Source of the DNA: Paludibacteraceae bacterium
GTDB taxonomy: Bacteria > Bacteroidota > Bacteroidia > Bacteroidales > Paludibacteraceae
Assembly: GCA_023227695.1 (NCBI GenBank)
Contig: JALNVE010000002.1
Coordinates: forward strand, 13,767-77,766
Direction: 5' to 3'
DNA length: 64,000 nucleotides
Position numbers and translations under genes: made by a program. Each line of letters opens with the position of its first letter. Position 1 is the first letter of the stretch. This document shows, piece after piece, positions 4,291 to 57,854 of this stretch. The notes below the pieces were generated by a model, which was given only the letters and a program-made list of their open reading frames with translations, did not search any database and was not told the origin of the DNA.

Positions 4291-5001
4291 TTAAACTCCT
4301 TTGAACTTTTCTAAGATAAGATTCATCGCTGTTTCCTTATCAAGGACTTTACCTTTTTCAATCCATTCGTCTCCCTTCTCTTCAAGGAAAGACATTACTT
4401 CTTTGATTTTGGGTCCAGGTTTAATATCCAATATCTTCATAATTTCAAGTCCGTCTAAGATGGAATCGTTCTTCGTGACGGGTTTGATCGCTTTCACTTT
4501 TTCTATCTTTTCACGAATAGAAGGAATATTATTGCCTTTCGGTATCTTACCCTGTTCATCGGCGGCTGCCAAATCAACCACAGCATCTACAAGTTCTTCC
4601 CCTACTTCACGAATAAATTTACGTATTCCGGCTGTTCCTGCGTCATGCAGCGCGTGTGGGCGCATATGGTTTTCTACGATTTTTCTGACATTGCGAATAA
4701 CATCCGTATCAAATTTAAGTCTACGGCAAACGGCTTCTGCTATTTCTCCGCTTACCTTTTCATGGCCGTAACTGTGAATGGCACCGTCAATAAGTTCGGT
4801 TGTAGATGCTTTACCAGCATCGTGAAGAAGCGCAGCCAATTGGTTTTCAATACCAGGCTTTGAATTCTGCAAAACCATCATTGTGTGTTTTAAAGAATCG
4901 CCTTGTTTCAATACAACGACATCTGGATGACACTGTGAAGTATTAAACTTTCGACAATTTTTGCAATAACTATCTCTCAAACAATAATCTGATGGATTCA
5001 T
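4291..5001 (-). CDS. cca: CCA-adding enzyme (tRNA nucleotidyltransferase), detached C-terminal HD-domain piece
   Basis: HD-domain pattern HTMMVL...LAALLHDAGK...GHEKVSGEIA...ENHMRPH. It picks up the class II CCA enzyme sequence just after the point where the 6160-7971 ORF stops (G-x-x-Q...KF / ...HPD). Confidence 0.75.
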   Translation of the reverse strand: MNPSDYCLRDSYCKNCRKFNTSQCHPDVVVLKQGDSLKHTMMVLQNSKPGIENQLAALLHDAGKASTTELIDGAIHSYGHEKVSGEIAEAVCRRLKFDTDVIRNVRKIVENHMRPHALHDAGTAGIRKFIREVGEELVDAVVDLAAADEQGKIPKGNNIPSIREKIEKVKAIKPVTKNDSILDGLEIMKILDIKPGPKIKEVMSFLEEKGDEWIEKGKVLDKETAMNLILEKFKGV

Positions 5002-5004
5002 AAT

Positions 5005-6105
5005 CTATTCTCCAATAAATTCCAAACATCTTTTCAAAACGGTGTCTTTATCTTCCTTATAATCACTTTCCCATATAATCAAAAATTCGTATCCTTTTTC
5101 TTTGGCATTTTTTATTTTATTGCTATCGATGGTTTCGACTTCAGACGCTGTTCTGTTAGTATATACCTGTTTCCATTTCCGTTTCTGGTCTTCGGTTAAG
5201 TTTGGATTGACGTGAAATTTGTCTCCATTAAACTCGATCACCTTCTTTATATCTTCTATAACGAAATCAAAATTTCTATTAGTTCCACAAGAAAATTCAT
5301 GGTTAAGTTCTCCAAAATAAATTCTTTTATACTTGACTGATATGTTTTTATAAATTTCTTGAAAAAGAATTTGAGAAATCTTAGAATATGGAGATAAATT
5401 TCGGTTCAGCCAAATTTTTCTCTTATTTGTTTCTTTTCTGATTTTATCACAACGTTGTTGATATTTCCTTTCTCCGATTTCTTTTCCGTACTTTTTAACA
5501 AACCAATCAAGTTTGTATATTTTCGAGATATTGTTTCTCCAAGATTTATATCTTTCTAATCCCTTTTCTTGTCCTAAAATATATTGAAATCTTTCAAGTG
5601 GGGATAAACCTTTCATCTTCTGAGAAAAGATATAAGCTTTGCCTGAACTTCTATCTAAGTATTCTTTCTTTAAGATAATTTTCCCGAATTCTTTTTCATA
5701 GTCTTCTTTATTAAAGTCTTTATGTCTCCATCTTAAGTGTTGACAGAGATTAATATATGTTTTTCCACAAAGTTCACACCTAATTTTTTCGTGTTCATGA
5801 ACGTGGTGATCAATTGAAAAATTTTCCTTAATATAGTCGTCATACTTAATTTCCTTGTGACAGTTTTTGAGGTGTGTACCAAGTCCAGACATTGACTTCG
5901 TTTGTTTTCCACACAGTCTACATAAATGAAGGAATTCTTTCTTCTCTATATTCTTAATTATTATCCCATAGAATTTTAAGAAATAGTCACAATAATTGAG
6001 ATCATTTTTATGAACAGTTTTGATGTGAGTTCGTAGGACATTAAAAGAAGAATATGTTTTGCCACATAACTTACATTCAGTTGGAAAAGTTAATCCATAA
6101 TTCAT
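5005..6105 (-). CDS. free-standing homing-endonuclease-like protein (3x C2H2 zinc fingers + Vsr/DUF559-like PD-(D/E)XK domain)
   Basis: There are three C-x2-C-x12-H-x3-4-H fingers (CKLCGKTYSSFNVLRTHIKTVH and two more). The C-terminus FDFVIEDIKKVIEFNGDKFH...GYEFLIIWESDY has the Vsr-like nuclease pattern. I moved the start to ATG 6105, which follows the RBS AGAGGTGG; the track start at 6135 is a TTG. It sits between the two halves of the CCA enzyme. Confidence 0.65.
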   Translation of the reverse strand: MNYGLTFPTECKLCGKTYSSFNVLRTHIKTVHKNDLNYCDYFLKFYGIIIKNIEKKEFLHLCRLCGKQTKSMSGLGTHLKNCHKEIKYDDYIKENFSIDHHVHEHEKIRCELCGKTYINLCQHLRWRHKDFNKEDYEKEFGKIILKKEYLDRSSGKAYIFSQKMKGLSPLERFQYILGQEKGLERYKSWRNNISKIYKLDWFVKKYGKEIGERKYQQRCDKIRKETNKRKIWLNRNLSPYSKISQILFQEIYKNISVKYKRIYFGELNHEFSCGTNRNFDFVIEDIKKVIEFNGDKFHVNPNLTEDQKRKWKQVYTNRTASEVETIDSNKIKNAKEKGYEFLIIWESDYKEDKDTVLKRCLEFIGE

Positions 6106-6159
6106 AACCACCTCTGTTATGAACAGACATATCAAAAAGAATGTTAGTAGGCATCTTCC

Positions 6160-9456: not shown

Positions 9457-10427
9457 TTATGACCTTCCGGTAAGCAGTTAACGCGATAGGCAATACCGTT
9501 TTGTCTCATAGCTCTAGCCACAGGGCCTCCACGTCCCTTTTCCATATCTTCTGGACTTATCACTGTTTGAACAACCACTCCAGACCTACCAAGATCAAAT
9601 TTATCTCCGACTGTAGGCGGTTTTATACCTACTGGAATATCAAGACCATAATATTCTCCTCCTCGTCCTCCCAAGGAATCTGGAAGATATTTCATATATT
9701 GAGCCCAATAATTTAATTCCCCAGCCGCCGTTTTCAGGTCTGGGTCTGAATCGACATCACTGTCTCTATTTTCATCATTCTTCTTATATCTTACGGCATT
9801 CGGGTCTCTGTCATCTAGTCTTGGCGGACGAATTCCTTTTCCTTCACTATATTTGGGTTTGGTTATTCCATCAGCCATCAAATCCTTATCTTTCCTGTTT
9901 AGTTGTTGTCCCTGACTTGCGGTTTTGAATTTGTCCGGACTGAATTCATCTTGATTTAGAAGCCTTTCTGTTAGTTTTTCAATCATCGCTTCTGTCTTCT
10001 CATCTCTTAATTTTGTAACAAAAGGATCTTGACCCGTTGTAATCTCCGGTACTTGTTGCTGTTTGATAGACGCTTTTGTCTCCTGAACCGGCGGTTCTTC
10101 TTGTTTAATTTCTTCATTTGTTTTATCGGTATTCGGGATGTCAGTTGAATCTTCTTCTTTTTCGTCAAGCCCTAATTCTTTCAAGAGACTGTCAATGCTG
10201 TCTTCCGAAGTCGTATTTTCTTCTTCTTCTGAAGGTAATTCATCACTTTTGGTCTGCTCTATGGGTTCTGGTCCCGGCGTTTCTGTTAACGCCTGGTCTC
10301 CTGGTTTCGGCTGACCTTGTAGTTTTTCCTTAACGGAATGATAAAGACTAAGGATTTCTTCATCTGTAAGCTCCTTTGATTTCCTTACTATTGCCGCCAA
10401 AATTATCTTTCTAAAATTCTTTTTCAT
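9447..10427 (-). CDS. hypothetical acidic protein (scaffold-like by position)
   Basis: I moved the start to ATG 10427 (MKKNFRK), 2 nt after the putative portal stop. It has a long acidic low-complexity middle. The scaffold role is inferred only from its position after the portal. Confidence 0.4.
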   Translation of the reverse strand: MKKNFRKIILAAIVRKSKELTDEEILSLYHSVKEKLQGQPKPGDQALTETPGPEPIEQTKSDELPSEEEENTTSEDSIDSLLKELGLDEKEEDSTDIPNTDKTNEEIKQEEPPVQETKASIKQQQVPEITTGQDPFVTKLRDEKTEAMIEKLTERLLNQDEFSPDKFKTASQGQQLNRKDKDLMADGITKPKYSEGKGIRPPRLDDRDPNAVRYKKNDENRDSDVDSDPDLKTAAGELNYWAQYMKYLPDSLGGRGGEYYGLDIPVGIKPPTVGDKFDLGRSGVVVQTVISPEDMEKGRGGPVARAMRQNGIAYRVNCLPEGHKWL

Positions 10428-10431
10428 TTCC

Positions 10432-28223: not shown

Positions 28224-29167
28224 ATTTCACCTTTATTCAAAATTCTATAATGTTTATAGAAAACGGGTTTCCCTTTTCTAATGAAAAGGCTTTAAATACC
28301 ATTACCTAAAAAATATTTTTTATCCTTAAACAGAAACCGTGAATACCCGGCTTTCTGATCCTGATCATTCAAGTTCACTTCGTTTTCTTTCATGAATCAG
28401 GATTCTTTTTATTATTTAAAAACGATTTTGATTAAATCACACAGGGGATCAGGGACCATCAAATCGTACGAAGTACATTTGGGGAAATCCCCGTATGTGT
28501 GATATCGGTCGGTGAGTTTGAGGGAATGAAAGAACAGATTTTCCCCCTTTACAAGGAAGAATAAGTATTATCTGTTTCATTCATTCATTCTATTTACAGG
28601 ATTCTATATTCACAGTGTTAAGTAAATATAGAATCCTGATGTGCTAATCGTATAGGTTGAGAATCGGTATACGCTTTCGCAGACTGAGAATGGAATCTAA
28701 CCATATCTCTGTATGCCCCTCGTGCAGCGGGTGTCCCCCACAAACCTACACTAGTCTATTAGGCAGACTAGGCATACCTTCTCCATATCCACACAGATTT
28801 TGTTAATCACTGTCGCTGGTCAGAATACCGTTACGGGTAAAAGTCCTATAAATTCACGGGTTTGTGTTCCACCATAAATCCATAGATTATAGAGTTCATT
28901 AAGCCAACCGGGTTATCCCTTTTGGCTCCGCTCCTTCACGCGAAGGCCGTGTTCCAAGTATCTTCACCTTATTATAGGGTCTTGTCCGTGTCTTACATCT
29001 TTCTGTTTTCAACAGTGTAGATACGGTCTTGAATTATGATACGGAAATTCTTTAATGCTTCCTTGGCGTTACGCCCCCGAAACTTATTATCAAGGCTGTC
29101 GGGAATCCTTTTCATCACTTTATTTTAAGACCACTTTATTTTACAAGGTTTTATCCGTTACAGAATA
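28224..29167. ncRNA. ORF-free, GC-enriched, hairpin-dense region: candidate large structured RNA (class and strand unassigned)
   Basis: The track shows no ORF of 60 aa or more on either strand across 944 nt, and stops are frequent in all frames I translated. My hand GC counts are 32/60 (28681-28740) and 30/60 (28921-28980), against 22/60 and 24/60 in nearby coding lines. There are many stable hairpins, including a 13-bp perfect stem at 28597-28638 and a nested 11+10-bp hairpin at 28438-28501. Confidence 0.35.
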
Positions 29168-48601: not shown

Positions 48602-50026
48602 ATGAGTGGAGGTCTCATGAAGCTTATCATAAAAAAACAGACAATTAATGTTGAAAATTTTCAGATTTTCTTTGAATTGGTTAAAGGACATAAAATAATC
48701 CCCGATCTAAAGATGCCAACAAAGGAGCTTGAATCATTCTGGGAAAACCATCTAAAAGATATTAGAATCACGAAGACTAAGCTCAGAAGATGTCTATGTG
48801 TAAATGTTTATTTTATTAGATCTCACTTGGTGGTTAAGTATTGGATAAATAAAGGATGGACAGAAGAAGAAGCAAAAGAGAAGATATCCCAATTACAAAG
48901 AAACAATTCGGAAGCATCTATTGATCATTGGGTAAAATTAGGACTAAACCGCCAAGATGCGGAAGAAAAGGTTAAGCAATCCCAATCCATAAGGGGTCTC
49001 TTTTTATCAAAAAAATTAAAAGAAAATCATCAGTTTAGAAGAGAGTTTTCTCCATCGAATATTGAATTTTGGCTAAAAAGGGGACAGGGCGAAAATGAAT
49101 CCTGCTTATCGGTGGAAGAGTTTAACAAAAGTAAGTTCAAAAATAACAAGGAAAGCTATATACGGTTATATGGAGAAGAAAAGGGTATGGCTGTTTGGGA
49201 TCGTTTTGTCAATGGCAAGTCAAATGAAAACTTAATCCGAAGGTTCGGGCCTGAAATTGGTGAGCAGAAGATAAAGAGCAGAAATAGCAGGTTGGCCGAT
49301 CATAGGGGGAGAGAAGGTTTTGTTAGACGCTATGGAGAAGAAATAGGAGAGCAGAAATATGAAGAGCTTTTAGAAAAACAAAAGAAAATGGGGGATAAGG
49401 ACTGGTACTTGAAGAAATTCGGGGATGTGGAAGGGTTGAGGTTATATACCGATAAATGTAAGTCTATAAAAGAATCACACTCTCTCGAATATATTAAGAT
49501 GAAATATGGAGAAGAAGATGGGATCAAGCGATTCTATAAATGGAGAGAGGATATGGTCGTAAAGAGGGGGAGGGCGTCTAAAGCCTCTCTTCTCTATTTT
49601 TTAAAGCTATATAAAATTTTGAGAAAGGGATACAAAATAGCCAGAAAAGATATTTTCCTAGGAATATCCGGCTCACATGAATGGTTTATTCTCAGTGATG
49701 GAAGATTCTATTTATTCGATTTTGTTATTCGTAGCAAGAAGATAATAATTGAATTCAACGGAGCACATGTTCATCCCAAGGAGGATAGGAAAGAGGAAAA
49801 TGGGTATTGGGAGAACTGGAGACACCCTTGGTCTAAAGAGGGGGCGGAAGAAGTGTTGATGAAAGAAAAACGTAAAACTAAATTAGCTAAGGATTTAGGA
49901 TACTCTATCTATACCCTGTGGAGCGATCTATCTTTCGAGGAAAATTGGGAAATTATAAACAAAATGATTCTTGAAAATTTTATCCTAAATTTACCCAACC
50001 CTATTGACAATAATCTAATCCTATGA
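48602..50026 (+). CDS. free-standing homing-endonuclease-like protein (Vsr/DUF559-like PD-(D/E)XK), paralog of 5005-6105
   Basis: The C-terminus FDFVIRSKKIIIEFNGAHVH...GYSIYTLWSD parallels FDFVIEDIKKVIEFNGDKFH...GYEFLIIWESD in the other copy. Both share internal YG-E-E-x-G-x-x-K/Y repeats. Confidence 0.6.
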   Translation: MSGGLMKLIIKKQTINVENFQIFFELVKGHKIIPDLKMPTKELESFWENHLKDIRITKTKLRRCLCVNVYFIRSHLVVKYWINKGWTEEEAKEKISQLQRNNSEASIDHWVKLGLNRQDAEEKVKQSQSIRGLFLSKKLKENHQFRREFSPSNIEFWLKRGQGENESCLSVEEFNKSKFKNNKESYIRLYGEEKGMAVWDRFVNGKSNENLIRRFGPEIGEQKIKSRNSRLADHRGREGFVRRYGEEIGEQKYEELLEKQKKMGDKDWYLKKFGDVEGLRLYTDKCKSIKESHSLEYIKMKYGEEDGIKRFYKWREDMVVKRGRASKASLLYFLKLYKILRKGYKIARKDIFLGISGSHEWFILSDGRFYLFDFVIRSKKIIIEFNGAHVHPKEDRKEENGYWENWRHPWSKEGAEEVLMKEKRKTKLAKDLGYSIYTLWSDLSFEENWEIINKMILENFILNLPNPIDNNLIL

Positions 50027-50032: not shown

Positions 50033-50133
50033 TTTCGCCAAACAAAGAAGTGAAATGGTTATTACTTCGATAAGGAGTTTTATACAAAGACGGATTCAAG
50101 TTTCGACAATTCATAAGAAAGGTGGTTTCATTT

Positions 50134-50853
50134 ATGAGGGTTTTAATAAGTAGCGGGGGCACGAAGATTGGGTTGGATTTGGTCAGACATATCGGCAACA
50201 TGAGCAATGGAACCCTTGGAAGCCGTCTAGGAAGAGACTTCTTAAAGATTGCCGATGAGGTTATTTTCTTCAGGGCAGAAAAATCAAAGTCTCCGATGAT
50301 CGCTGAAGTGAATTTCGCTAATTCCAACCTTGAAGCCAATACCAAGAATTTTGAACAGGCGAAAGCCAACTGGGAACAAACTGGCTATAAATATCACGAA
50401 CATACTTACAAGTCTTTTGAAGACTATCAGAGTGGTTTGGAAAATCTGATCACGCTCTATAAGCCCGATATCATTATTCTTGCCGCCGCTGTCAGTGATT
50501 ATGCACCTGAAACCGTTGTGCAGGGGAAGATTAGGTCAAAAGGAAATTTGGACATTCATCTGGTACCTCTGCCAAAGGTCATTTCAAAAGTCAGGGATTG
50601 GGCAGGAGATAAAGCTACAATTGTCGGCTTTAAGCTCCTTGTAGATGTTGATAAACAAGAACTGATTGATAGCGCCAAGAAAAGTTTGGTTGAAAATAAA
50701 CTCGATTTGGTATGTGCCAACGACTTGCGGAGCATCCTTAATGGAAACCATCTGATTCATCTTGTCGATTCTTCAGACATTGTTAAGGATATTGATGCCC
50801 ATTCTCTTGCTAGAATAATTGAATCTCATATTTCAACAAAAGGGAAACAATGA
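50134..50853 (+). CDS. coaB: phosphopantothenate-cysteine ligase (CoaB)-like protein
   Basis: VLISSGGTKIGLDLVRHIGNMSNGTLGSRLG matches the CoaB/DFP C-terminal-domain start (ITAGGT-x-E-x-ID-x-VR-x-I-x-N-x-SSG). AAAVSDY and GFKLL follow later. I moved the start to ATG 50134 behind RBS AAAGGTGG. Confidence 0.65.
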   Translation: MRVLISSGGTKIGLDLVRHIGNMSNGTLGSRLGRDFLKIADEVIFFRAEKSKSPMIAEVNFANSNLEANTKNFEQAKANWEQTGYKYHEHTYKSFEDYQSGLENLITLYKPDIIILAAAVSDYAPETVVQGKIRSKGNLDIHLVPLPKVISKVRDWAGDKATIVGFKLLVDVDKQELIDSAKKSLVENKLDLVCANDLRSILNGNHLIHLVDSSDIVKDIDAHSLARIIESHISTKGKQ

Positions 50854-51947
50854 ATAAGAACAAACTTTGTGTTGTTTTTACTGGAACTGTAGCTTCAACG
50901 CTGGCACCTAAAATATGTGAAGCATTCCAAAATGATTTTGAAGTAACAACGGTCTTTACAAAAAAGGCTCTATACTTTTACAACCCATTTAGATCTATGA
51001 ATTCAGAAACTCCTTTTTGTGATTCTTACTTGGATGATGAAACTGAATGGAAAGGTTTGCCAGTAGGCGGGTATGTGAAGCAACAGGAAATTCCCCATGT
51101 TGACCTAGCGACACAGAACGATGTCTTATTGATTATCGCTAGTGCTGATTTTCTTGCTAAGATGACAAACGGAATCTGTGATGACTTGGCATCCAGCCTG
51201 TATCGGGCTTGGAGACGGCATAGACCAGTTATTGTTGCACCGGCGATGAATTCCTATATGTGGAATCATCCCGTTACACAGGAGCATCTGAATACACTTA
51301 AAAGTTGGAATGTAAATATTGTTTATCCTCAAGAAAAAATGCTTGCTTGTGGAGAGGTGGGAATGGGTGCCCTAGCGGAAATCCAGTTCATCAAAGAAAT
51401 TGTAGATAAATCAATAAAACCTATTTTCCCTCTTGATATTAATGATTGCAGTGGAATTCCGGTCGGAAAAGATCATCCCGGTTCATTCCTTGGTAAAAGG
51501 AAGTTTGCTCCACATACAGGAGTTGATTTGTATTGCAATAATTCGACTCCTGTTTTCTGCATGGCTCCTGGTGTCGTTGTCAGTGTCGAAGACTTTACAG
51601 GAACAGGAGATAATTCAACATGGTGGGAAGACACAAAATGCGTCTTGATTCGACATAGTTTCGGGACGGTTTGTTATGGAGAAATAGAACCGGCATTTGG
51701 GATTAAAGAGGGATTAGAAGTTTCTTGTGGTTCTATTATCGGAAATGTTAAGAGAGTTTTGAAACCCGGAAAAGAACGTCCAGATATTCCAGGTCACAAA
51801 ACCTCGATGCTTCACATCGAACTGTATCCTGTGGAACAAAAGACGGCTAGTAAGAGCTATGAACAGGACAAAGAAGTTCTAAGAAATCCGACAGATATGC
51901 TTATTAAGGCATGGGGAGAAAATCCTGTAATCTTAACTAAGGAGTAA
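50850..51947 (+). CDS. coaC: fusion: phosphopantothenoylcysteine decarboxylase-type flavoprotein (CoaC/HFCD) + M23 (LytM) peptidase-like domain
   Basis: The N-terminal ~185 aa read LCVVFTGTVAS...IIASADFLAKMTNGICDDLASS...VIVAPAMNSYMWNHPVTQEHL...CGEVGMGAL, the flavoprotein pattern. The C-terminal ~170 aa read HTGVDLYCNNSTPVFCMAPGVVVSV...LIRHSFGTVCYGEI...VSCGSIIGNV...SMLHIELY, the M23 HxxxD...HxH-like pattern. Confidence 0.65.
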   Translation: MNKNKLCVVFTGTVASTLAPKICEAFQNDFEVTTVFTKKALYFYNPFRSMNSETPFCDSYLDDETEWKGLPVGGYVKQQEIPHVDLATQNDVLLIIASADFLAKMTNGICDDLASSLYRAWRRHRPVIVAPAMNSYMWNHPVTQEHLNTLKSWNVNIVYPQEKMLACGEVGMGALAEIQFIKEIVDKSIKPIFPLDINDCSGIPVGKDHPGSFLGKRKFAPHTGVDLYCNNSTPVFCMAPGVVVSVEDFTGTGDNSTWWEDTKCVLIRHSFGTVCYGEIEPAFGIKEGLEVSCGSIIGNVKRVLKPGKERPDIPGHKTSMLHIELYPVEQKTASKSYEQDKEVLRNPTDMLIKAWGENPVILTKE

Positions 51948-53050: not shown

Positions 53051-53079
53051 TTGACAGATTTCGATAAAAGTGCTATTAT
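53051..53079 (+). promoter_or_regulatory. sigma-70-type promoter (TTGACA-17-TATTAT)
   Basis: The -35 is at 53051-53056 and the -10 at 53074-53079. It lies 25 nt before ATG 53104. Confidence 0.6.
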
Positions 53080-53378: not shown

Positions 53379-53678
53379 ATGAAGATTATCACGAGGAAAA
53401 TTGACGAACTGAAACAAAGAAGGAATGAATTGGCTTGTGAAATCAAGTCAATGCGGGCTGGACGTAAAGAATCCCTAAAAAAAGTATCTGGTTTTCAATG
53501 TAAACTAGCTTACAAGAGTATGGAAAGTAGGTTGCTACATATAGCCTATTGTGAGCTAATGGGCCGCACAAGAGACGAGATTGAAAAGCCAAGGCTTGGA
53601 AATGCTCCAAACGAAGCGATGATTGAACAGATTAAGGAGCAGTATGCTTGGGAAACCCAACAGGGGGTTCAGCAATGA
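53379..53678 (+). CDS. hypothetical protein
   Basis: ORF track, with RBS AAGGAG. Its stop overlaps the ATG of the PTH2-like gene (ATGA). Confidence 0.5.
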   Translation: MKIITRKIDELKQRRNELACEIKSMRAGRKESLKKVSGFQCKLAYKSMESRLLHIAYCELMGRTRDEIEKPRLGNAPNEAMIEQIKEQYAWETQQGVQQ

Positions 53679-53971
53679 AAAAACTGTATGTCTTGGTGAG
53701 GAAAGACCTAACGCCGTCATATCAGGCGGTTCAAGCTGGACATACTGTTGCAGAATGGTTGCTTCGGCATTAGGGCCAAACGGAATGGGAAAACGGAACC
53801 CTAATTTATCTTGGTGTCGGAAACCTTGATGAACTTGAAAATTGGGTTAAGAAACTAGACTTCAAGGGAATGGAATGTACTGAATTCATAGAACCGGACA
53901 TCGGGAATCAAAGAACAGCCATTGCCTGTCTAAGTGACGGAAAGGTCTTTTCAAATCTGAAGTTGCTCTAA
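53675..53971 (+). CDS. peptidyl-tRNA hydrolase PTH2-like protein containing one in-frame TAG (53771-53773)
   Basis: My translation is MKKLYVLVRKDLTPSYQAVQAGHTVAEWLLRH-TAG-GQTEWENGTLIYLGVGNLDELENWVKKLDFKGMECTEFIEPDIGNQRTAIACLSDGKVFSNLKLL*. Both sides of the TAG are in one frame ((53771-53675)=96), and together they fit the PTH2 fold pattern. Confidence 0.65.
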
Positions 53972-53998
53972 AACAAGCCCCTGTAAAAAGGGGCGATT

Positions 53999-54075
53999 GC
54001 CTCGGTAGCTTAACGGTCAGAGCGGCGATCCCTAAAATCGCGTCAGTAGGAGTTCGAATCTCCTACGAGGCACCA
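53999..54075 (+). tRNA. tRNA with anticodon CUA (amber suppressor candidate), CCA encoded
   Basis: Hand fold: acceptor GCCUCGG/ACGAGGC (G7-A66 mismatch), U8, D arm GCUU-AACGGUCA-GAGC, anticodon arm GCGAU-CCCUAAA-AUCGC, variable GUCAGU, T arm AGGAG-UUCGAAU-CUCCU, discriminator A, CCA. Oddities are C at position 33 and a 6-nt variable region. A hairpin (gcccct-gtaaaa-aggggc, 53977-53994) immediately precedes it. Confidence 0.7.
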
Positions 54076-54139
54076 GAATAAGATTTCCGATAATCTTGCT
54101 GACTTCGAAAAGTATTTTGAAAAATTCTAAGTCTACCCA

Positions 54140-54168
54140 TTGACAAATCCTAAGAAATTGTGTATAGT
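54140..54168 (+). promoter_or_regulatory. sigma-70-type promoter (TTGACA-17-TATAGT)
   Basis: The -35 is at 54140-54145 and the -10 at 54163-54168. The TTG that the ORF track uses as a start codon is the -35 element. Confidence 0.6.
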
Positions 54169-54217
54169 ACCGGTATCAAAAGAACCAATGGGGTTCTTAA
54201 GAAAGGTCGGTGAGAAT

Positions 54218-55088: not shown

Positions 55089-56516
55089 ATGAAAATAAAT
55101 GGTGGCTTTTTAGTTGAATTGGGCCTGAAACCCTGTAAGACGTTTGGGGAACTTTTGAAACTATTCAATACTAGTGGAGATTATACCGAACAGGGAATCC
55201 GTCACGTTGTAGAAGGATTCATTAATCTTAAACTTCCCAAGAACATCAATACGATTCACGGGGATTCCCCGGCTTGTTTGAATCTGTTGAAAATCTATTT
55301 TGACTACGAAACGGAACACAAGAAGGCCGATATCAAATTGCGAAACGAAAACCTTCCCTTTAACATCTTCGGTGCTGAAAACATTGAACAGGGAGCAGTT
55401 GATCAGATGATTACCGCTATGCGGCTCCCTATCGCCGTTGCGGGGGTTCTAGTTCCTGATTCACATCAGGGTTACAATTTGCCGATTGGAGGAATCTTGG
55501 CGACAGAGAATCAAGTTATTCCTAATGCCGTAGGAGTGGATATTTCCTGTAGTATGAAAATGTCAGTGTTCGAAGAAGTAAGCTTCCCAGAGAAGAACAA
55601 TGCTTTTAGAATGGAACTGAAAGAATCTTTGGTAAAACAGACGTGTTTCGGTGTCGGTCTAAATGAAAAGAAAGGTCTGATCCATTGCGGGTTCGAAAGC
55701 ATCGTGCTTGAAAATAATCTATGGAATGATATCCCGATGTTGAAGAAATACAACATTCGGAAACTTGCAGAGAATCAAATCGGAACATCTGGGAGCGGTA
55801 ATCACTTCGTTTTCTTTGGGAATCTAGATTTCAAAGACGGAACACCAGCAAGACTAGCCTTGCTTAGTCATAGCGGTAGCCGTGGTGTCGGATATAAGAT
55901 CGCCAAACTTTACCATGACCTTGCTTGTAAGAACTTTGACAACAAAGGCTTTCAGGGTTGGGCATGGCTTGATTTGGATACCGACAACGGAAAAGAATAT
56001 TGGGCGGCGATGAATCTCTGTGCTGATTTTGCCCGTATCAGTCACGATATGATTCATTATCGTATCAATAAGTTCTTGGGATTGGAACCTAGCTTTACGG
56101 CCTTTACTAACCACAATATTGCCTATCGCGAAACGCACATTATTAATGGTAAGGAAATGGATTTGGTTGTCCATCGCAAAGGCGCTGTTCGTGCTTTCAA
56201 GGATGAAATCGGAATCATAGCGGGAGACATGGTTCATGATAGTTTTATCGTAAAAGGAAAAGGGAACGAATCTAGTCTTTGTTCTTGTTCTCATGGGGCT
56301 GGAAGAGTTATGAGTCGTCAATCTGCGAAAGAAAAATTTACTCATAAACAAATGGAAAACATATTAAACGAATTCGGTGTGGAATTGTTAGGTGGGGGAA
56401 TTGATGAATCACCAATGGCATACAAAGATGTTTACGGTGTAATAGATAGTCAAAAAGATTTAGTTGAAATTATCGGAACCTTTTCACCTAAAATTGTAAA
56501 AATGGCAGAACAATAA
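55089..56516 (+). CDS. rtcB: RNA 3'-phosphate/2',3'-cyclic phosphate-5'-OH ligase RtcB
   Basis: RtcB motifs appear in order: PDSHQGYNLPIGG, GVDISCSM, TSGSGNHF, HSGSRGVG, CSCSHGAGR, and the C-terminal MAYKDV...P. Confidence 0.9.
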   Translation: MKINGGFLVELGLKPCKTFGELLKLFNTSGDYTEQGIRHVVEGFINLKLPKNINTIHGDSPACLNLLKIYFDYETEHKKADIKLRNENLPFNIFGAENIEQGAVDQMITAMRLPIAVAGVLVPDSHQGYNLPIGGILATENQVIPNAVGVDISCSMKMSVFEEVSFPEKNNAFRMELKESLVKQTCFGVGLNEKKGLIHCGFESIVLENNLWNDIPMLKKYNIRKLAENQIGTSGSGNHFVFFGNLDFKDGTPARLALLSHSGSRGVGYKIAKLYHDLACKNFDNKGFQGWAWLDLDTDNGKEYWAAMNLCADFARISHDMIHYRINKFLGLEPSFTAFTNHNIAYRETHIINGKEMDLVVHRKGAVRAFKDEIGIIAGDMVHDSFIVKGKGNESSLCSCSHGAGRVMSRQSAKEKFTHKQMENILNEFGVELLGGGIDESPMAYKDVYGVIDSQKDLVEIIGTFSPKIVKMAEQ

Positions 56517-56584: not shown

Positions 56585-57547
56585 ATGAAATGGATTGTTT
56601 ATGTCGCAACAAACAAAATAAATGGAAAGAAATACGTTGGTCAAACAAAAGTCGGAATTGAAAAAAGGAAAGCCAGTCATCTTGCTGGTTCTCTATATGG
56701 TGATCCCTATGCTTTTGCAAATGCTATAAGAAAATACGGAATAAATTCATTCTTTTGGGAGATTTTAGTTGAAGATATAGGAACTCAAGAAGAACTAGAT
56801 AGAATAGAAATTGAAAAAATAAAAGAATTAAAAACATTAGTCCCTTTTGGTTACAATATATCAATGGGAGGTGGAGGGGGCGATACTTTTGAAAATAATC
56901 CAAGGAAAGAAGAGATAAGAGAGCATCTCCGTATTATTAATACAGGAAAGAAACTTTCACAAGAAACGAAACTTAAAATGAGTATTTCAAGAAAAGGAAA
57001 TAAAAATTCACTAGGAACAAAGCGTTCTGAAGAAACTAAGAGAAAGACATCTGAAACGATGAAGAAAAGATGGGAAGAGGGTTTGCCATCTCTACATGGG
57101 CACCCAATGTCGGAGACTACGAGAAAAAAGTTATCTGATCATTTTAAGGGAAGAATCGTTTCGGATGAAACGAGAAAAAAAATGTCTCTTTCTCAAAAAG
57201 GCAAGAAAGTTTCGGATGAGACAAGAGAGAAAATAAGAAATTCTAAAATTGGGAAAAAGCATTCTAAAGAATTTTGTAAAGCAACATCTGAGAGAACGAA
57301 AGGTGCTAAAAACCCATTTTGGGGAAAGAAACATACACTTGAATCTAAACAAAGGAAATTAACAGTAGAGATGGTTAAGAAGATTAAACACTCATTAATT
57401 AAAAAACCAGATGGAATGACTCTTAAATGGCTGTGTAAAACCCTATCTGAAGAATATGGGGTTGGAACGAGTGCTATTATGAAAATTAAAACGGGGGAAA
57501 CTTGGTCGGACGTTTATATAGAAGAGGAAAATTATGAAAACAAATAA
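56585..57547 (+). CDS. GIY-YIG homing endonuclease with NUMOD3-type repeats
   Basis: WIVYVATNKINGKKYVGQT...KRKASH...KYGINSFFWEIL...GYNISMGGGG is followed by repeated G-K-K-x-S-x-E-T-K/R-x-K-M-S motifs. Confidence 0.8.
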   Translation: MKWIVYVATNKINGKKYVGQTKVGIEKRKASHLAGSLYGDPYAFANAIRKYGINSFFWEILVEDIGTQEELDRIEIEKIKELKTLVPFGYNISMGGGGGDTFENNPRKEEIREHLRIINTGKKLSQETKLKMSISRKGNKNSLGTKRSEETKRKTSETMKKRWEEGLPSLHGHPMSETTRKKLSDHFKGRIVSDETRKKMSLSQKGKKVSDETREKIRNSKIGKKHSKEFCKATSERTKGAKNPFWGKKHTLESKQRKLTVEMVKKIKHSLIKKPDGMTLKWLCKTLSEEYGVGTSAIMKIKTGETWSDVYIEEENYENK

Positions 57548-57854
57548 AAGAAGCATGGCTACGCCTTCCTACTATGTTGGCGGAAAAGGAAACGAAGACA
57601 GCCTTTGTAGTTGCAGTCACGGAAGCGGACGCAAAATGTCAAGAAAACAGGCGAAGGAAACTTTTTCTAAGAAGGAGATGCATGATTTCCTTGAAGCCGC
57701 AGGTGTTGAACTCCTTGCCGGTGGGATAGATGAATGCCCTATGGCCTATAAAGATGTTGCCGGGGTTATGGAAGCACAAAAAGATTTGGTTGGAATTTGT
57801 GGCACTTTTCGTCCTAAAATCGTAATGATGTGTGATGAACCCGATAACGATTGA
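57534..57854 (+). pseudogene. diverged duplicate of the rtcB 3' end (last ~90 codons)
   Basis: YYVGGKGNEDSLCSCSHGSGRKMSRKQAKETF...GVELLAGGIDECPMAYKDVAGVMEAQKDLVGICGTFRPKIV parallels FIVKGKGNESSLCSCSHGAGRVMSRQSAKEKF...GVELLGGGIDESPMAYKDVYGVIDSQKDLVEIIGTFSPKIV at 56244-56513. It is in the same reading frame as rtcB ((57534-55089)=2445). Confidence 0.7.

Follow-up and report, generated by a model that had tools for sequence, protein, structure and literature searches.

The window analyzed here is a stretch of 64,000 nucleotides (nt) from a bacterial assembly (GCA_023227695.1, contig JALNVE010000002.1, positions 13,767 to 77,766 of the forward strand). It contains a locus in which a gene for a protein with a predicted PTH2 (peptidyl-tRNA hydrolase 2) fold carries an in-frame amber codon and is followed by a transfer RNA (tRNA) gene with a CUA anticodon. 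The window sequence is identical to part of the 208,184-bp contig ERZ27249489 k141_739816 and is present at NCBI as well, in a metagenome-assembled genome with the label Paludibacteraceae. Portal and terminase genes are present, and the window therefore belongs to a large phage or prophage-like element. On the plus strand, the locus begins with an open reading frame (ORF) for an all-helical protein of 99 amino acids (53379-53678), here called the partner ORF. Its TGA stop overlaps the ATG of the PTH2-fold ORF (53675-53971, 98 codons) as ATGA. This second ORF reads through 32 codons to a TAG at codon 33 (53771-53773, in the context CAT TAG GGC), continues for 65 further codons, and ends at TAA (53969-53971). 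The tRNA gene (53999-54075) starts 27 nt past that stop. Public gene calls are empty over 53679-54217, and the PTH2-like gene is uncalled. A preliminary description, made from the letters of this DNA, had given the ORF coordinates, the ATGA overlap, and the positions of TAG and TAA, and translation showed all of them to be correct.

Suppressor tRNAs read stop codons as sense, and the tRNA at this locus has the anticodon expected of an amber suppressor. In the entire 64 kb, ARAGORN identified one tRNA (53999-54075, +); its anticodon is CTA and its CCA end is encoded. The Rfam tRNA model (RF00005) matched it with 49.7 bits (gathering score 29, E 1.2e-7). The anticodon loop is CCCUAAA, as in an earlier hand fold that gave anticodon CUA. 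This loop is 7 nt long (54031-54037), and position 33 is therefore C rather than the near-universal U. The tRNA also has a G7-A66 mismatch and discriminator base A. ARAGORN labels the tRNA "Pyl," which is merely its default name for a CUA anticodon. tRNA-Pyl has a short D loop, a 3-nt variable loop, and a 6-bp anticodon stem, and it is ruled out by the standard 7/4/5/5 stems, 8-nt D loop, and 5-nt variable loop of the window tRNA. No pyl genes turned up among the scanned proteins, although no search was aimed at them.

Bacterial tRNAs with a CUA anticodon usually insert glutamine. Among the related tRNAs surveyed below, discriminator bases and acceptor pairs vary widely, and the nearest of 180 other phage tRNAs are those for Trp, Lys, and Phe (58-79% identity), which does not narrow down the amino acid identity. 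When homologs of the PTH2-like protein were aligned at the TAG position, the Q shown by relatives turned out to be TAG in their DNA. In the closest relative (P0001, locus L064, 244-540) and in P0004 (locus L065, 1891-2187), the database Q thus masks an in-frame TAG. Use of this Q as evidence for glutamine was dropped as circular because the DNA of P0001 and P0004 has TAG and the gene caller applied code 15.

Comparison of the protein with known families and structures pointed to PTH2. Read across the TAG, the fused ORF matches the Pfam PTH2 family (PF01981) weakly (16.3 bits, E 0.011) and does not reach the gathering cut-off of 23. Neither half alone gave a Pfam match. Several homologs carry a precomputed PF01981 match, and 90 metagenomic homologs of about 98 residues extend across the stop position. 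A family profile search matched solved PTH2 structures with E values of 4e-4 to 2e-3. The AlphaFold model of P0001, which is 80% identical to the window protein and has the same TAG, has a predicted local distance difference test score (pLDDT) of 96. In a Foldseek search of PDB with this model, 13 of the top 14 matches were PTH2 chains (2zv3, 1q7s, 3erj, 1wn2, 1xty, and 1rlk; template modeling scores 0.72-0.84, with 0.78-0.84 for the leading ones), and the remaining one was 2gax, a protein of unknown function. From the profile matches and the model, the protein is therefore predicted to have a PTH2 fold, and the modeled structure indicates that the likeness is real at fold level. The model places the TAG between helix 1 and strand 2, in a loop. 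The family-invariant residues Q20, H23, W38, and E73-P74-D75 are all kept in the window on both sides of the TAG; Q20 and H23 form part of the AQxxHA motif, and D75 belongs to the EPD motif.

The catalytic residues of PTH2 enzymes are less well matched. In Sulfolobus Pth2, we take these to be Lys18, Asp86, and Thr90. The invariant D75 of EPD fits the presumed catalytic Asp. In a hidden Markov model (HMM) alignment, the Lys before the AAQ motif is aligned with Tyr or Gln in the family, and Gln or Glu stands in place of the Thr when the DAGxT motif is aligned by hand. The preliminary description had called the PTH2-like product a tRNA-recycling enzyme. Profile and model bear out the fold, and the enzymatic role is a fold-level reading of a match below the Pfam cut-off in a protein in which two of the three presumed catalytic residues are apparently not conserved.

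Phages of the crAss-like, Lak, and other groups recode TAG to glutamine (code 15) by means of phage suppressor tRNAs (10.1101/2021.08.26.457843; PMC9523058). Early or partial recoding of this kind would mean that the phage reads, or is coming to read, TAG as sense in a group of genes beyond the window, and that the PTH2-like gene is one member of the group. In favor of this, a tRNA(CUA) suppressor is the hallmark of phages that have recoded TAG, Lak phages with recoded TAG carry homologs of the gene, the short contigs of some relatives received code 15 from gene callers, and the window covers 64 kb of the 208-kb contig. Against this explanation, TAG terminates 10 of the 78 called genes in the window, and the portal, the large terminase, and other long genes are intact without an in-frame TAG. 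The ten TAG-terminated ORFs are those listed in the preliminary description, and its rejection of whole-genome code 15 agrees with gene calling under both codes, since greedy ORF maps of the window gave a coding density of 93% with code 11 and 93% with code 15. None of the gaps in the gene map of the window is filled by a plausible ORF with an internal TAG, and in about 1 Mb of related loci, ORF pairs joined by TAG are no more frequent than those joined by TAA or TGA. Counts of stop-joined pairs replaced a per-locus comparison of code 11 and code 15 density, which was too noisy because removing any stop raises coverage. Recoded phages also place in-frame stops in late and lysis genes (Borges et al., 10.1101/2021.08.26.457843), not in a translation-related cassette gene. 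One gene in the 64 kb has an in-frame TAG, and the window otherwise uses the standard code, not genome-wide code 15; partial recoding beyond its borders is very improbable.

Two other observations on TAG codons in the window proved to be accidental. The minus-strand ORFs 5005-6135 and 4291-5001, which form the sole other pair of sizeable code-11 ORFs to fuse across a TAG, were considered as a second read-through candidate and rejected, as they are in frame by chance; the former is a homing-endonuclease-like gene and the latter is a separate HD-domain gene with its own ATG. The preliminary description had also drawn attention to back-up stops behind TAG. Eight of the ten TAG ORFs do have a TAA or TGA within 9 codons, which is nominally unusual in the window (Fisher p 0.015), but the argument built on this vanishes on pooling. 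Over 128 related loci, a back-up stop follows 42% of 193 TAG ORFs, compared to 45% of TAA ORFs and 47% of TGA ORFs, and the pattern is due to chance.

Conservation of gene order across divergent genomes can indicate functional linkage, and relatives of the locus were surveyed in this respect. IMG/VR, JGI metagenomes, and GTDB genomes were scanned with the family motif, and single-protein look-ups were added, giving 125 distinct family genes at the DNA level, 122 of them complete. Linkage to a tRNA was scored in the 113 genes whose contigs extend at least 120 nt past the gene, and presence of the partner was scored in 117 loci with at least 300 nt upstream. A same-strand tRNA(CUA) lies downstream of 94 of the 113 genes (61 within 100 nt, 30 more within 1 kb, and 3 farther). 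In a first set of 55 loci, it was found in 49, in 21 of them within 20 nt, and six tRNAs begin at the base right after the stop codon. CUA was the commonest anticodon in these loci (50 cases), with no other exceeding 12. Among 97 family tRNAs, A37 and A38 of the window tRNA are shared by 87-93, and C33 occurs in 8, including those of the window and of L065, both of which adjoin TAG-bearing genes.

In all of the 117 loci, the ORF immediately preceding the PTH2-like gene is a homolog of 53379-53678. Its family motif is YRHxHIAYCxLRGRTxxQIE, and an AlphaFold model of the partner is a helical hairpin (pLDDT 81.6). The partner protein has no match in Pfam or PHROG, and Foldseek gave no significant PDB match. 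These comparisons indicate that the locus is a conserved phage cassette with three parts: a helical protein of about 100 amino acids, a PTH2-fold protein of about 98 amino acids, and a suppressor tRNA. The preliminary description had proposed a locally coupled suppressor and target pair acting as a switch. The coupling is strongly supported by pairing of gene and tRNA across more than 100 divergent phage loci and by recurrent cognate stops, including a TAA/UUA case. It is not a one-off but a trait of a conserved three-gene cassette whose upstream partner ORF had been overlooked.

The family comprises about 1,400 clusters at 50% identity (E below 1e-10). Only five matches were found among the 185,579 species genomes of GTDB, all in metagenome-assembled genomes, and the family is essentially confined to phages. 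Searches of GenBank phages gave no match to the locus at the DNA level and only distant relatives at the protein level (31-48% identity). One relative occurs in a cultured phage, Acinetobacter phage vB_AbaM_ME3 (L058, KU935715.1, 166601-167422). There, a tRNA annotated "anticodon CTA" lies about 450 nt upstream of the homolog ME3_195, the gene order is unlike that of the metagenomic cassettes, and ME3_195 has no in-frame stop. This phage could serve as an experimental system. In two other loci (L018, 5995-6303; L129, 65-373), the PTH2-like ORF lacks a separate stop codon. It overlaps the first 10-11 nt of the tRNA(CUA) gene, where the conserved U8-A9-G10 of the tRNA supplies a terminal TAG, so that cleavage by RNase P would produce an mRNA without a stop. 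L003 (1-435) is the sole locus with a broken partner ORF (a TAG and a second stop). It has no detectable tRNA(CUA) and looks like a decaying cassette.

In-frame stops recur throughout the family. One stop each is present in 33 of the 122 complete genes (32 TAG, one TAA, and no TGA), and none of the 122 has a frameshift or a non-cognate stop. All 33 stops are of the type read by the anticodon of the cassette suppressor (32 TAG with CUA and one TAA with UUA). Two loci are ochre versions of the cassette. In L087 (244-624), codon 39 is TAA, the gene terminates in TGA, and a tRNA(UUA) begins 2 nt downstream. In L074 (1455-1842), a tRNA(UUA) lies 14 nt downstream of an ORF that ends in TAG. The stops occupy 10 alignment columns, 24 of the 33 being in the variable loop ahead of the invariant Trp (between helix 1 and strand 2), and parsimony on a neighbor-joining tree requires 16-21 changes; the stops arose independently many times. 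Under a random nonsense model, in which TAG is expected in 33% of cases, 16 independent events would all match the anticodon with p about 2e-8. TAG is also rare as terminator, closing three of 95 CUA-linked genes compared to 193 of 1373 other ORFs of the same loci (14%; p 9e-4). Four protein matches that had been noted as truncated are all TAG cases, three by DNA and one (P0086) by an N-terminal sequence shared with L015. The base following the in-frame stop is G in 16, A in 10, T in 7, and C in none, and terminator TAGs are followed by T in 62, A in 61, G in 38, and C in 32. This bias is suggestive, but it was not relied on, since common descent and the identity of the following amino acid are both confounders. 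The cognate stops with purifying selection behind them, the TAA/UUA counterpart, and the TAG-avoiding terminators argue indirectly that the window tRNA decodes UAG.

A stop codon within a gene may reflect a pseudogene or a sequencing error, with the nearby tRNA a coincidence. Public annotation calls no gene here, and Pfam recognizes neither half, as would be expected in that case. The same TAG, however, occurs in independent assemblies of relatives with 70-80% identity (L064 and L067). In each of the six nearest relatives (L064, L067, L063, L065, L066, and L052), whose proteins are 66-80% identical to that of the window, codon 33 or 34 is TAG, at the codon position of the window in L064 and L067 and at the neighboring codon in the other four. 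Comparison of the window with L064, L065, L063, and L052 after the TAG gave a proportion of synonymous differences (pS) of 0.7-0.9, which is saturated, and a proportion of nonsynonymous differences (pN) of 0.17-0.25, indicating that the codons after the TAG are under strong purifying selection. All family-invariant residues are kept. The shared TAG, the low pN, and the intact invariant residues therefore exclude sequencing error, recent nonsense mutation, and decay, and the absence of frameshifts and non-cognate stops in the 122 complete genes points the same way. An error or a pseudogene has next to no probability, and these comparisons indicate that the TAG is old and that the part downstream of it is translated.

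Stop codons within genes for translation factors can regulate the synthesis of those factors. The gene prfB, encoding release factor 2 (RF2), is autoregulated through an in-frame UGA that is passed by a +1 frameshift. We think it likely that synthesis of the PTH2-fold protein depends on the suppressor, and that the cognate stop acts as a built-in sensor or feedback element in a conserved suppressor cassette. Without a suppressor that is charged and outcompetes release factor 1 (RF1), ribosomes would get no further than codon 32. Full-length PTH2-fold protein would be made in proportion to suppressor activity relative to RF1. The in-frame stop would thus make the amount of a tRNA-ester-hydrolase-like protein follow how active its partner tRNA is, and the rest of the genome would stay in the standard code. 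The sign that we prefer is that of a governor, in which more suppression would give more enzyme, and the enzyme would limit suppression or clean up after it. By analogy with the in-frame UGA of prfB, its targets could be the peptidyl- or aminoacyl-tRNA of the suppressor or the drop-off products of unwanted read-through. Hydrolysis of peptidyl- or aminoacyl-tRNA by the PTH2-fold protein, whether the suppressor's own or that left by unwanted read-through, is suggested by the modeled fold. We infer that read-through takes place in the cell and that the coupling was selected for regulation. As in prfB, a translation-factor gene has an in-frame stop, and its synthesis would report the capacity to terminate or read through. 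prfB differs in that it uses a +1 frameshift and senses its own product, whereas the cassette of the window would use a suppressor tRNA and sense the neighboring tRNA.

Several observations weigh against this reading. C33 and the G7-A66 mismatch could lower the activity of the window tRNA; the L065 tRNA shares C33, and the L065 gene also requires read-through. Two TAG-bearing loci (L081 and L109) have no detectable tRNA(CUA) in the 1.9-4 kb downstream. The PTH2-fold protein lacks the presumed catalytic Lys, and probably the Thr, and its activity may differ from that of PTH2 enzymes. In-frame stops are absent from about 73% of the family genes, which makes the gate optional and not essential to the cassette. 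The stops that do occur cluster in a variable surface loop, a pattern that neutral tolerance would also give.

Neutral tolerance is a serious rival, though we regard it as unlikely. It holds that the suppressor detoxifies TAG, which then drifts into a permissive loop of a low-demand gene without regulatory purpose. The position of 24 of the 33 stops in the most variable loop and the high share of genes without a stop are in its favor, and detoxification of this kind has been proposed as a step to recoding by Borges et al. (10.1101/2021.08.26.457843). Drift should, however, affect other genes as well. The co-transcribed partner ORF served as a matched control, and it has an in-frame stop in one of 117 loci (L003), compared to 33 of 125 PTH2-like genes (Fisher p 7e-10); no other gene of the window has an in-frame TAG. 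The clade of the window also keeps TAG at codon 33 or 34 throughout, despite saturated synonymous sites. Were TAG no more than another spelling of a sense codon, frequent replacement would be expected, and its retention counts against neutral tolerance.

Feedback could instead act on the RNA, with the stop altering ribosome traffic just upstream of the co-transcribed tRNA. In one version, premature termination would expose the transcript to Rho and yield less tRNA until some suppressor exists, forming a positive latch. In another, ribosomes finishing the ORF would unfold the adjacent tRNA precursor, forming a negative loop. Such a mechanism would agree with the restriction of stops to the ORF that adjoins the tRNA and their absence from the ORF one step upstream, with tRNAs that begin 0-12 nt past the stop codon in many loci, and with a structured spacer where the gap is longer. 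However, TAG-bearing genes also occur with the tRNA 444, 531, and 3832 nt away (L010, L093, and L035, respectively), L092 and L098 have a terminator and a promoter between gene and tRNA, and conservation of the protein would be left unexplained. We consider feedback at the RNA level rather improbable as the explanation of the stops, and dependence of the PTH2-fold protein on the suppressor remains our preferred reading.

Suppressor tRNAs and phage recoding have been described in several systems that resemble the cassette in part. In recoded phages, as proposed here, a phage tRNA(CUA) reads in-frame TAG codons while the host uses the standard code, and expression depends on the suppressor. Those phages have stops in many genes, mainly late structural and lysis genes, and have largely dropped TAG as a terminator, whereas in the window a single gene in 64 kb is affected, which is the conserved neighbor of the tRNA itself, and TAG ends 10 genes. 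The papers on recoded phages (10.1101/2021.08.26.457843; PMC9523058) make no mention of a PTH2-like partner. Jade phages have a "code change module" upstream of the lysis cassette, consisting of a suppressor tRNA, tryptophanyl-tRNA synthetase (TrpRS), and RF1 (10.1101/2021.08.26.457843). It is likewise a compact cassette of a suppressor tRNA with protein factors of translation. Its proteins are a synthetase and a release factor, it is itself written in standard code, and its targets are elsewhere, whereas the window cassette has a PTH2-fold and a helical protein and contains its own target. The arrangement in the window is a gene-specific variant of phage stop-codon recoding, built into a conserved cassette and probably regulatory in nature.

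PTH2 genes have been reported in jumbo phages and in the tRNA arrays of cluster C mycobacteriophages (PMC7824862; PMC5966550). They have the same fold, probably belong to the same broad family, and are found in large phages near tRNA genes. In these two papers, PTH2 is treated as a general ribosome-rescue enzyme, the word "suppressor" is absent, and neither pairing with a suppressor tRNA nor a partner ORF nor in-frame stops are noted. The standard-code jumbo phage XacN1 resembles the window element in having a tRNA(CUA). In a read-through of all 18 amber stops, its authors identified no target for the CUA suppressors (PMC5852040), whereas a candidate target is identified for the window cassette. 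In XacN1, the homologous domain sits inside a longer protein, away from the suppressors. We did not find a PTH2-like/suppressor cassette, or in-frame stops in a PTH2-like gene, described in the open-access papers and bioRxiv preprints searched.

Suppressor tRNAs of standard-code phages, for which there had been no known target, gain a concrete candidate. The first steps to stop-codon recoding have so far been inferred, and the TAG/CUA and TAA/UUA versions of the cassette amount to a natural experiment. The PTH2 fold, seen in phages as a generic rescue enzyme, is tied to a specific tRNA, and a single tRNA, a protein of 98 residues, and one stop codon make up the proposed circuit, which is testable. 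A broader interpretation, which we put forward tentatively and hold to be somewhat doubtful, is that the cassette is a self-contained, horizontally spreading device of large phages for controlled amber suppression, with the PTH2-fold protein as dedicated governor of the partner tRNA or of the harm done by read-through, the stop as a selected sensor that sets how much suppression occurs, and the helical protein as third component, and that it could be a seed of TAG or TAA recoding and a target for orphan suppressors. If this were true, orphan suppressor tRNAs would have their first identified target, and the cassette would seed recoding of TAG or TAA. The tRNAs and their partner proteins could be parts for genetic-code engineering.

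Further elements surround the cassette genes. A stem-loop (GCCCCU/AGGGGC, 53977-53994, +; dG -12.9) lies between the stop codon and the tRNA and has no U-run on the plus strand. Relatives with a spacer of at least 27 nt (L064, L063, L067, L023, L038, and L042) have a stable stem-loop at the equivalent place, with dG about -12 to -19; the hairpin is kept as a structure, and its sequence differs among relatives. In L092 and L098, the spacer hairpin resembles a terminator and is followed by a promoter for the tRNA. Sigma-70-like promoter matches, each with 11 of 12 positions matching, are present on the plus strand at 53051-53079 (TTGACA, 17 nt, TATTAT, with TG) and, ahead of the next gene, at 54140-54168 (TTGACA, 17 nt, TATAGT). 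The first is a possible start of the cassette transcript and the second is the probable downstream boundary of the cassette. Both are weak evidence because such sites are as many in the region as expected from shuffled sequence.

Genes for RNA repair and mobile nucleases occur elsewhere in the window. The RNA-repair neighborhood noted in the preliminary description is real in this window, which encodes RtcB and a CCA-adding enzyme; in the related loci, the neighbors scored for conservation were the partner ORF and the suppressor tRNA. Downstream of a full-length rtcB (55089-56516) come an ORF for a GIY-YIG-like homing endonuclease (56585-57547) and then an ORF of 106 amino acids (57534-57854) that is 64% identical to RtcB residues 381-475. 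The latter is a diverged duplicate of the 3' end of rtcB, such as an endonuclease invasion might leave behind. The ORFs 48602-50026 (+) and 5005-6135 (-) are paralogous homing-endonuclease-like genes (29% identity over 218 amino acids) with repeated zinc-finger-like motifs and a common C-terminal nuclease-like domain. In two regions of about 950 nt each (28224-29167 and 9457-10431), neither code 11 nor code 15 gives a convincing ORF, and Rfam gives no match. CoaBC-like functions show an unusual division between a DFP-domain ORF (50122-50853) and the following ORF (50850-51947), in which a Flavoprotein (phosphopantothenoylcysteine (PPC) decarboxylase) domain is fused to a Peptidase_M23 domain.

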